Made by a program: the position numbers and the translations under genes | Part shown: in pieces, positions 19,970-20,758 of the stretch | Position numbering within the stretch: the first letter of the stretch is position 1 | Layout: each line of letters starts with the position of its first letter | The notes under the pieces: generated by a model | Told to the model about the DNA's origin: nothing | Databases searched by the model: none | The model's input: only the letters and a program-made list of their open reading frames with translations | Source of the DNA: Enterobacter vonholyi | GTDB lineage: Bacteria; Pseudomonadota; Gammaproteobacteria; Enterobacterales; Enterobacteriaceae | Direction of reading: 5' to 3' | DNA length: 64,000 nt | Assembly: GCF_008364555.1 (NCBI RefSeq) | Contig: NZ_VTUC01000008.1 | Coordinates: 1 to 64,000, forward strand

Positions 19970-20758
19970 ATGAGCAACAACGATGTTGATAGCGCGATGC
20001 GCGCACGTGTCTGCGCGCAACTTCGCGATATAGAGCAGCGCTATAACGTGCGCGTGCTCTACGCCTGTGAATCGGGCAGCCGGGGATGGGGATTTGCCTC
20101 ACCGGATAGCGATTATGATGTGCGGTTTTTGTACGTTCACCACCCAGAATGGTATCTGCGCGTCGAATCCCAGCGGGATGTGATCGAGCTGCCGATAGAT
20201 GATGAACTGGACGTTTGTGGCTGGGAATGGCGCAAGGCACTGGGCCTGCTGAAGGGGGCAAACCCGACGCTTATCGAGTGGCTAGATTCCCCTGTTGTTT
20301 ATCAGGAGGATGAGACGGTAGTGGCCGAGTTGCGTGCGCTGATACCTGCGTGGTTTTCGCCATTGCGCGCCCGCTGGCATTACTACTCAATGTCCCGAAA
20401 AAACTTCCGTGGATATTTACAGGGGGAAACGGTTCGGCTGAAAAAGTACTTTTATGTTCTGCGCCCTTTGCTGGCGGCGCGGTGGGTAGAAGCGGGGAAA
20501 GACGTTCCACCGATGCGTTTTGCCGAACTGCTTGCCGGGAGCGAACTGTGCGCGCCGTTACGTGCGGAAATCGATGCATTACTGGAAATAAAACAGCGCG
20601 CAGGTGAAGCGGAATATGGTCCTAAACGGCCCTTACTCCACGCTTTTTTGCAAAGTGAGCTGGTGAGAGGAGAAGTGCCGCCGGTACTACCCGACAGCAG
20701 AGAAGGAAATTTAAAAGATCTGGATTCGCTGCTGATGAGAACAGTAATGAAAAGCTAA
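19970..20758 (+). CDS. Pol-beta-superfamily minimal nucleotidyltransferase (RtcB-associated; in place of RtcA)
   Basis: 262 aa; NTase signature [27 protein letters not shown] (GS-X9-13-DxD) followed by a helical C-domain; starts 4 nt after the rtcB stop. Confidence 0.75.
   Translation: [262 protein letters not shown]

Follow-up and report, generated by a model that had tools for sequence, protein, structure and literature searches.

RlaP, a nucleotidyltransferase encoded in a Band-7-type RNA-repair operon of Enterobacter vonholyi

The first 64,000 nucleotides of Enterobacter vonholyi contig NZ_VTUC01000008.1 (assembly GCF_008364555.1), hereafter the window, contain a gene directly downstream of the RNA ligase gene rtcB which encodes RlaP, an ordinary member of the named nucleotidyltransferase (NTase) family PF10127. 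The gene belongs to an operon of the Band-7/b7a-tRNA/RtcB/RlaP RNA-repair type, a known kind of operon, which is found here without the cyclase gene rtcA. We consider it likely that RlaP is the accessory NTase of this RtcR/sigma-54-controlled operon and extends 3'-OH ends of RNA for ligation. The gene itself is already known: the family has been named and biochemically characterised, and the operon type was predicted in 2016. The initial annotation of this region, made from the sequence alone, described the rtcB-rlaP pair; the SPFH/Band-7 gene and a structured, transfer RNA (tRNA)-like leader RNA upstream of the pair also belong to the operon. The window is enterobacterial chromosome, with proteins 97-98% identical to those of Enterobacter roggenkampii/quasiroggenkampii.

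Family, active site and predicted fold of RlaP

The rlaP open reading frame (ORF) starts with ATG, ends with TAA and encodes 262 amino acids. A search of the protein against Pfam with hmmscan gave one match only, PF10127 ("RlaP, RNA repair pathway DNA polymerase beta family"), with an E-value of 1.1e-92 and 310.6 bits against a cut-off of 23 bits, which is far above chance. Residues 10-257 align to positions 1-249 of the 249-position profile. The RNA-repair-associated Pol-beta NTase family that had been proposed tentatively is thus the one to which the protein belongs. In addition, PHROG 14344 (nucleotidyltransferase) matches RlaP with an E-value of 2.5e-110; no NCBIfam model matches the protein. 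The family is large, with 5,048 matching cluster representatives (clustered at 50% identity) at an E-value of 1e-3 or less, and in this representative library the nearest relative beyond Enterobacteriaceae is a Pseudomonas sp. cluster (56% identity, E-value 3e-86). Two other assignments were considered and rejected. Pfam gives no match to the PolyA_pol/CCA families, which a CCA-adding enzyme would be expected to show, and a toxin-antitoxin pair of the HEPN-MNT type does not agree with a two-domain enzyme of this size which belongs to another family and has no HEPN partner.

Residue conservation was followed in two alignments, one of 50 diverse members (35-54% identical) and one of 118 diverse members (40-96% identical). 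All 24 family-invariant residues are present in the RlaP protein of the window, among them E34, G36, S37, R38, W40, S47, D48, D50, R52, D81, G84, W85, K89, N98, E103, W104, Y138, K158, Y162, R165 and K208. The GS...DxD signature with both aspartates, pointed out in the initial annotation, lies at residues 34-55, and its G36, S37, D48 and D50 do not vary in either alignment. It is D48-x-D50 that forms the catalytic DxD, D46 being only nearly invariant, and D81 adds a third invariant carboxylate, which gives the catalytic constellation G36-S37 ... D48-x-D50 ... D81.

The structure was predicted with AlphaFold from a 119-sequence alignment. With this deep alignment the model reached a predicted local distance difference test score (pLDDT) of 94.1 and a predicted template-modelling score of 0.89; a shallow alignment of 29 close orthologues (at least 69% identity) gave a poor model (pLDDT 60, with the NTase domain below 50). 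In the model a helix (residues 8-24) and four strands (27-34, 49-57, 71-75 and 80-86) make up the Pol-beta NTase core (alpha-beta-alpha-beta-beta-beta). The core is followed by an all-helical C-terminal domain (approximately 87-261), which had been anticipated at about 170 amino acids, and the domain ends with a closing helix at 248-261. The invariant residues G36, S37, D48, D50 and D81 are placed in the turn between beta1 and the helix, in beta2 and in the neighbouring strand. Structure prediction, originally suggested as a check, therefore returned a Pol-beta NTase fold with an intact active-site constellation. The 2.1 Å crystal structure of PfRlaP from Pseudomonas fluorescens, in which the NTase domain is followed by a helical domain and by a closing helix that rejoins the N-terminal helices, has the same order of elements (PMC12776372). 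Family membership and an intact catalytic constellation are established for the protein of the window, and a Pol-beta NTase fold is predicted with confidence.

When the model was compared with the PDB using Foldseek, only two-domain Pol-beta NTases were found, at template-modelling scores (TM) of 0.42-0.45 and 11-13% identity; the matches include kanamycin nucleotidyltransferase (KNTase)/ANT(4'), HalB of the Hailong system and 3c18. KNTase/ANT(4') and HalB share with RlaP the Pol-beta NTase core, the helical domain that follows it and the GS...DxD...D site, but they are separate families and their substrates differ, being aminoglycosides in the former and those of oligo-dA synthesis in the latter. 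The best fold matches are to KNTase/ANT(4') (Foldseek E-value 3e-5, TM 0.42-0.43), with AadA, LinB and AAD(9) also found, and Rtc operons have been reported to respond to ribosome-targeting antibiotics (PMC12606134). Both observations would suit a small-molecule NTase, for example an aminoglycoside or other antibiotic adenylyltransferase, protecting translation by inactivating a ribosome-targeting compound. We regard such a function as extremely unlikely: the identity is low and TM stays below 0.5, a phmmer search of the PDB sequences with the RlaP protein found no match at an E-value of 1 or less, RlaP falls into another Pfam family, members of which proved specific for RNA in labelling assays in vitro (PMC12776372), and the gene has a core-chromosome location in many genera with no resistance context.

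The similarity to HalB, the Hailong oligodeoxyadenylate synthase (TM 0.43-0.45), raises a further alternative, namely that RlaP is a signal-generating NTase, similar to HalB or the CD-NTases, producing an oligonucleotide messenger, for instance for the CARF domain of RtcR, in anti-phage or stress signalling. The adjacency of the CARF-domain regulator RtcR, the presence of homologues in jumbo phages and the ability of RlaP to use deoxyadenosine triphosphate (dATP) (PMC12776372) are in line with it. On the other hand, the published RlaPs stop once an RNA primer has received one or two nucleotides, and they do not produce free oligonucleotides (PMC12776372), rlaP persists at loci that have no rtcR, and the PADLOC defence models did not match RlaP, SPFH or RtcB; signalling is thus a very unlikely function.

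Organisation of the operon and its leader RNA

On the plus strand the order of the elements is a sigma-54 element, the leader RNA, the SPFH/Band-7 gene, rtcB and rlaP (Table 1), and the divergent rtcR gene lies upstream. The rtcB stop codon TAA (19963-19965) is followed by AAAA and then by the rlaP start codon at 19970 (...GTA AAA GGA TAA AAAA ATG), so that the spacing is exactly the 4 nucleotides reported initially. The Shine-Dalgarno sequence of rlaP, AAGGA at 19958-19962, lies within the final two sense codons of rtcB. The boundary between the SPFH gene and rtcB is built alike (AAAGGATAA-CGCA-ATG), with rtcB starting 4 nucleotides past the upstream stop codon. Both the SPFH and the RtcB proteins end in K-G-stop, encoded by AAAGGATAA (window positions 18726-18738 and 19957-19969), which at the same time provides the following gene with its ribosome-binding site, and the junction AAAGGATAA-N4-5-ATG is kept in orthologous loci. 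Because the embedded Shine-Dalgarno design repeats at both boundaries and in the orthologous loci, it is reasonable to infer that the SPFH, rtcB and rlaP ORFs are translationally coupled through the last codons of the upstream gene.

Table 1. Coordinates of rlaP, the other operon elements and adjoining features in the window.
Feature	Position	Strand	Remarks
rtcR, sigma-54-dependent RNA-repair activator (CARF-like RtcR domain and AAA+)	15591..17165	-	NCBIfam and Pfam
Sigma-54 (-24/-12) promoter-like element TGGCACGCTTCTGGCA	17300..17315	+	Faces SPFH-rtcB-rlaP
Structured leader/noncoding RNA	17341..17588	+	Covariation, invariant tRNA T-arm
SPFH/Band-7 (slipin-family) gene, 375 amino acids	17607..18734	+	Pfam Band_7, E-value 7e-26
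rtcB, 3'-phosphate/5'-OH RNA ligase, 408 amino acids	18739..19965	+	Pfam RtcB, 436.5 bits, full length
rlaP, Pol-beta-superfamily nucleotidyltransferase	19970..20758	+	PF10127
GC-rich hairpin between convergent rlaP and lysC	20763..20790		Minimum free energy -27.3 kcal/mol, z = -5.7 against shuffles
lysC	20800..22149	-	Convergent to rlaP

The protein encoded by rtcR matches the NCBIfam equivalog NF038308 (826.8 bits, cut-off 650) as well as the Pfam families RtcR and Sigma54_activat. Its reading frame is open up to 17255 (mechanical ORF 15591-17255), and the NCBIfam alignment begins at ORF residue 33; the ATG at 17165 is the likely start. Likewise, the mechanical ORF of the SPFH gene starts with a GTG at 17571, but translation most likely begins at the ATG at 17607, 7 nucleotides after a Shine-Dalgarno sequence AAGGA. 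The RefSeq orthologue in Escherichia coli, a "slipin family protein", is likewise 375 amino acids long. The element TGGCACGCTTCTGGCA has a single mismatch to TGGCAC-N5-TTGCW. It is kept in all orthologous loci with rtcR and absent from the Escherichia loci that lack rtcR, and we take it for the putative sigma-54 promoter of the SPFH-rtcB-rlaP operon. Scans for sigma-70 promoters and terminators inside the operon gave results at chance level.

Translated searches (tblastn) with an RtcA gave no match, either in the window or at any of the 49 orthologous loci. The view that rlaP occupies the slot normally taken by rtcA needs refinement: rtcA is absent, but it has been lost rather than replaced, as the nearest non-enterobacterial relatives have the order rtcB-rlaP-rtcA. 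Recent horizontal acquisition of the island was rejected, since its guanine-plus-cytosine content (0.54-0.56) is the same as that of the flanks and the same yjbD-lysC site is used across many genera.

The leader between the sigma-54 element and the SPFH start is approximately 290 nucleotides long and conserved across genera. Using RNAalifold, 51 base pairs were predicted for it, 24 of them with compensatory changes. The structure assigned to it has 52 pairs in eight helices; it is 94% paired compared to 43-54% when the partners are slid, compensatory double changes are seen in 31 of the 52 pairs compared to 7-12 when slid, and the observed values were reached in none of 500 shuffles. The leader carries an invariant tRNA T-arm, GGGTTCGATTCCC at 17427-17439, with a GGTTCGAnTCC T-loop and a stem of 3-5 base pairs. 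In the window, Rfam gave nothing at an E-value of 1 or less over 3.9 kb and chance-level matches alone at 10 or less for the leader, the Rfam tRNA model was negative as well, and ARAGORN found no tRNA in the leader.

With a covariance model of the leader, the RNA is detected at every locus that has SPFH, among them Escherichia loci without rtcR and rtcB (102-105 bits), whereas the model does not match the Leclercia loci without SPFH or the loci with rlaP only. Three distant loci give weak matches directly ahead of SPFH, and in two of these (L066 and L082) ARAGORN recognises tRNA-like genes at the leader position. In leaders of the Kosakonia/Franconibacter type the T-arm is enclosed in an acceptor-like stem, GCGAA/UUCGC with the compensated variant GCAAA/UUUGC, and followed by an ...ACC tail. 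In eight loci (alignment columns 86-135 in L027, L029, L031, L039, L040, L041, L044 and L045) an extra insert of approximately 18 nucleotides in the leader gives rise to such a stem around the T-arm, with the ...ACC tail behind it. The variant resembles the top half of a tRNA whose CCA is one nucleotide short. In the window leader the 5' strand of the acceptor-like stem is missing and a downstream hairpin is found in its place. At window positions 17365-17403, GGAACGG can pair either with CUGUUUUCC, as the covarying hairpin, or perfectly with a downstream CGUUCC, and the leader may thus have alternative conformations.

The simplest reading of the leader is that of an enterobacterial b7a-tRNA, which it probably is. 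The Band-7/b7a-tRNA/RtcB RNA-repair system, with RlaP as an accessory component, was predicted by Burroughs and Aravind in 2016 (PMC12776372; PMC6514570; 10.1101/312249), and as these sources describe it, it consists of an SPFH gene next to RtcB, a tRNA-like noncoding RNA ahead and RlaP; the window has counterparts of all four parts, with the leader as the candidate b7a-tRNA. Compared to the b7a-tRNA as described there, the window leader would be a degenerate version: it has kept the T-arm and several covarying helices, but it is not recognised as a tRNA by ARAGORN or Rfam. The b7a-tRNA itself was predicted, and as of 2018 not validated (Wang et al., bioRxiv 10.1101/312249).

Arrays of tRNA genes were called by ARAGORN on the same strand beside rtcB/SPFH/rlaP homologues in metagenome contigs, with 19 genes in one (L085, 32-2327) and 10 in another (L107, 7315-9152). 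They recall the stress-induced tRNA operon of Anabaena, the regulon of which also holds rtcB and a slipin gene.

Distribution of rlaP and its neighbours

Orthologues of rlaP with 72-97% identity are present in 48 species-representative genomes of Enterobacteriaceae, nearly always between yjbD/transporter and lysC. Together with one E. coli locus these give a set of 49 loci, which was ascertained through rlaP. The complete arrangement, divergent rtcR followed by SPFH-rtcB-rlaP, is the most frequent one (23 loci). The SPFH gene and rlaP occur with rtcR and without rtcB in 13 loci (Kluyvera, several Citrobacter, the Klebsiella oxytoca group, Superficieibacter and Mangrovibacter), rtcR is followed by rtcB-rlaP in two (Leclercia), and SPFH-rlaP only is found in three (two Escherichia, and one Citrobacter with a partial rtcR match). 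In the other loci rlaP is alone, the locus is decayed, or it is cut by contig ends; two species retain rlaP alone. The anatomy of the operon and its conservation are shown by these comparisons.

Altogether SPFH is present in 39 of the 49 loci compared to 25 for rtcB, so in these enterobacterial loci the linkage of SPFH and the leader RNA to rlaP is more persistent than that of rtcB. In 13 species (L002, L003, L008, L010, L012, L014, L015, L017, L019, L022, L028, L040 and L043) rtcB is gone exactly between the two AAAGGATAA repeats, leaving SPFH coupled to rlaP with the ribosome-binding site unchanged. Two genomes of Citrobacter amalonaticus differ in the presence of rtcB. The ratio of nonsynonymous to synonymous substitution rates of rlaP is 0.05-0.15 in every locus class, including rlaP standing alone; rlaP is thus under purifying selection even where rtcB, or both rtcB and rtcR, have been lost.

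A search of complete E. coli genomes with the 6.3-kb island of the window (megablast) gave no match, owing to divergence (approximately 75-80% nucleotide identity), and the counts were obtained with queries derived from Escherichia. Among 5,426 complete genomes, rlaP is present in 1,630 and the slipin-rlaP pair in 1,624 (approximately 30%). RefSeq names the two proteins "slipin family protein" and "nucleotidyltransferase domain-containing protein". In the annotated E. coli locus inspected (L049; NZ_CP134805.1, 5618-7815) the pair adjoins yjbD and lacks rtcR, the sigma-54 promoter and rtcB. A prophage is located downstream of the pair in that genome. E. coli carries the canonical rtcBA operon elsewhere.

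These distributions raise the possibility of a different set of partners for RlaP, namely the SPFH/Band-7 protein and the tRNA-like leader RNA, the three forming a self-sufficient trio to which RtcB would be optional or supplied in trans; the Band-7 scaffold could, for example, hold the tRNA-like RNA or damaged tRNAs while RlaP extends or restores their 3' ends. In favour of the trio are the persistence of SPFH over rtcB, the precise removal of rtcB between the repeats, the slipin-rlaP pairs of E. coli with neither rtcR nor rtcB in cis at the inspected locus, the continuing selection on rlaP at rtcB-less loci and the occurrence of the leader together with SPFH. The Kosakonia-type leaders, with an acceptor-like stem, a T-arm and a tail like a tRNA 3' end one nucleotide short of CCA, are in line with it, and Pseudomonas RlaPs label full-length tRNAs in vitro (PMC12776372). 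Several facts speak against it. The loci were ascertained via rlaP, which makes the persistence of rlaP partly circular, and the two Leclercia loci retain rtcB-rlaP although SPFH and the RNA are lost, while two species have kept nothing but rlaP. The rtcBA operon of E. coli could supply RtcB in trans, and Band_7 is found next to diverse relatives less often than RtcB. The window leader has no acceptor-like 5' strand. All in all, we consider the self-sufficient trio unlikely.

RtcB is the commonest same-strand neighbour family of diverse RlaP relatives. In metagenomic relatives (43-63% identity, n = 62) the same-strand neighbours (n = 124) include RtcB 13 times, RtcA seven times, and Band_7 and GNAT four times each; in the 30 loci with adequate flanks RtcB was found in 14, RtcA in eight, and RtcR and SPFH in seven each. 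The closest non-enterobacterial relatives (53-62% identity) have rtcA directly after rlaP, in the order rtcB-rlaP-rtcA. The relatives do not, therefore, simply co-occur with unrelated genes, though the link between RlaP and RtcB is neither universal nor obligatory. Jumbo Pseudomonas phages also encode homologues, with approximately 46% identity along 87% of the length. In addition to these phage NTases, PF10127 holds T4 NrdC.11 and proteins of the Bacillus subtilis YcgL type, the genomic contexts of which differ from the operon of the window.

Proposed role of RlaP and the surroundings of the operon

The biochemistry of the family is known from PfRlaP (P. fluorescens) and PaRlaP (Pseudomonas aeruginosa) (Carruthers, Fatma & Huang, bioRxiv Dec 2025; PMC12776372), which fall into cluster 1a of the sequence-similarity network (E-value 1e-30 or less). 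The two enzymes label RNA, not DNA or protein, and add one or two nucleoside monophosphates, using any nucleoside triphosphate and also dATP, to 3'-OH ends only, never to 3'-phosphate or 2',3'-cyclic phosphate ends; the activity is Mn2+-dependent, Mn2+ or Co2+ being preferred over Mg2+ (PMC12776372). They favour the 3' end left by a nick in the anticodon loop over the 3' terminus of the tRNA, and treatment with RlaP before ligation partly restores aminoacylation of a tRNA-Asp mimic short of one nucleotide (PMC12776372). Similarly to RlaP of the window, PfRlaP and PaRlaP belong to PF10127, have two domains and three conserved aspartates, and are encoded after rtcB in an RtcR-controlled operon. 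The Pseudomonas rlaP genes lie between rtcB and rtcA (PMC12776372), in contrast to the window operon, which has no rtcA. The rtc locus of P. aeruginosa also includes an SPFH protein, PaFlo8 (PMC13086221).

Related RtcB operons share part of this design. The canonical rtcBA operon of E. coli has the divergent RtcR, the sigma-54 promoter and the RtcB ligase in common with the window operon; in strain K-12 it consists of rtcB-rtcA only, without SPFH, tRNA-like RNA or RlaP, whereas the window operon lacks rtcA. In Salmonella rsr-yrlBA-rtcBA, also an RtcR/sigma-54-controlled RtcB operon, a scaffold protein and a tRNA-mimicking noncoding RNA come first, as they do in the window (10.1101/312249). The scaffold of the window operon is SPFH/Band-7 and not Ro/Rsr (the Ro60 orthologue), RlaP is present and RtcA absent, and the leader RNA matches no Y-RNA or other family of Rfam; the RNAs of the Salmonella operon are Y RNAs.

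By analogy with the characterised systems we infer the enzymatic activity of the window RlaP, its in-vivo substrate and the induction of the operon. RNA damage would activate RtcR, and a single transcript from the sigma-54 promoter would then carry the tRNA-like leader RNA and the genes for SPFH/Band-7, RtcB and RlaP. With its GS...DxD...D site and two divalent metals (preferably Mn2+), RlaP would add one or two untemplated nucleoside monophosphates to the 3'-OH of broken RNA, with a preference for the 5' fragment left when a tRNA is nicked in its anticodon loop. The added nucleotides would replace those trimmed after ribotoxin cleavage, and ligation would subsequently regenerate a full-length, functional RNA. 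The nucleotide addition to damaged RNA 3' ends proposed in the initial annotation agrees with the activity of PfRlaP and PaRlaP, which is confined to 3'-OH ends; of the various ends it had listed, the phosphorylated ones drop out (PMC12776372). The rebuilding of tRNA 3' ends given there as an example is in keeping with addition at RNA 3' ends, but the preference of the Pseudomonas enzymes for the anticodon-loop break over the tRNA 3' terminus makes it the less suitable example (PMC12776372).

A number of points weigh against this role. Its biochemical basis is one preprint on Pseudomonas proteins which are probably approximately 55% identical to RlaP of the window (PMC12776372). Furthermore, the chemistry does not close: RlaP makes a 3'-OH and RtcB needs a 3'-phosphate or 2',3'-cyclic phosphate, a gap flagged also by the authors of the preprint (PMC12776372), and the operon encodes neither RtcA nor any 3' kinase. 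Cooperation with a cis-encoded RtcB is not obligatory, because rlaP remains under purifying selection in loci without rtcB, that is, in 13 of the 49 loci and in the slipin-rlaP pairs of approximately 30% of E. coli genomes. In addition to that, 41 of 66 diverse metagenomic relatives have no RtcB, RtcA, RtcR or SPFH nearby, many of their contigs being short. A broader formulation of the alternative partnership, unlikely in our opinion, is that enterobacterial RlaP belongs primarily to a module of tRNA-like RNA, slipin and RlaP that needs neither a ligase or cyclase of its own nor RtcR. If that were true, RlaP would mainly lengthen or restore 3' ends, either those of tRNAs or that of the slipin-held tRNA-like RNA, instead of preparing ends for RtcB, and the mismatch between its 3'-OH product and the 3'-phosphate needed by RtcB would be removed.

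In RefSeq the gene and its orthologues, including those in approximately 1,600 complete E. coli genomes, have only the generic nucleotidyltransferase name; they can be renamed RlaP and the operon recognised as Band-7-type RNA repair. The RlaP family has been proposed as the answer to ribotoxins which not only cut but also excise nucleotides. The natural variants of the enterobacterial locus (full, without rtcB, without slipin and RNA, and rlaP alone, the last in E. ruysiae) are found in tractable hosts and could reveal which partners RlaP needs.

The genes surrounding the operon are rluF, yjbD, a transporter gene of the bile-acid/Na+ symporter type and rtcR on the minus strand on one side, and the convergent lysC followed by pgi on the other. 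The hairpin at 20763-20790, between rlaP and lysC, is a probable bidirectional terminator closing the operon. The transporter gene (14541-15485, minus strand, 314 amino acids) lies between yjbD and rtcR; it is present at most enterobacterial loci and is missing along with rtcR in Escherichia.

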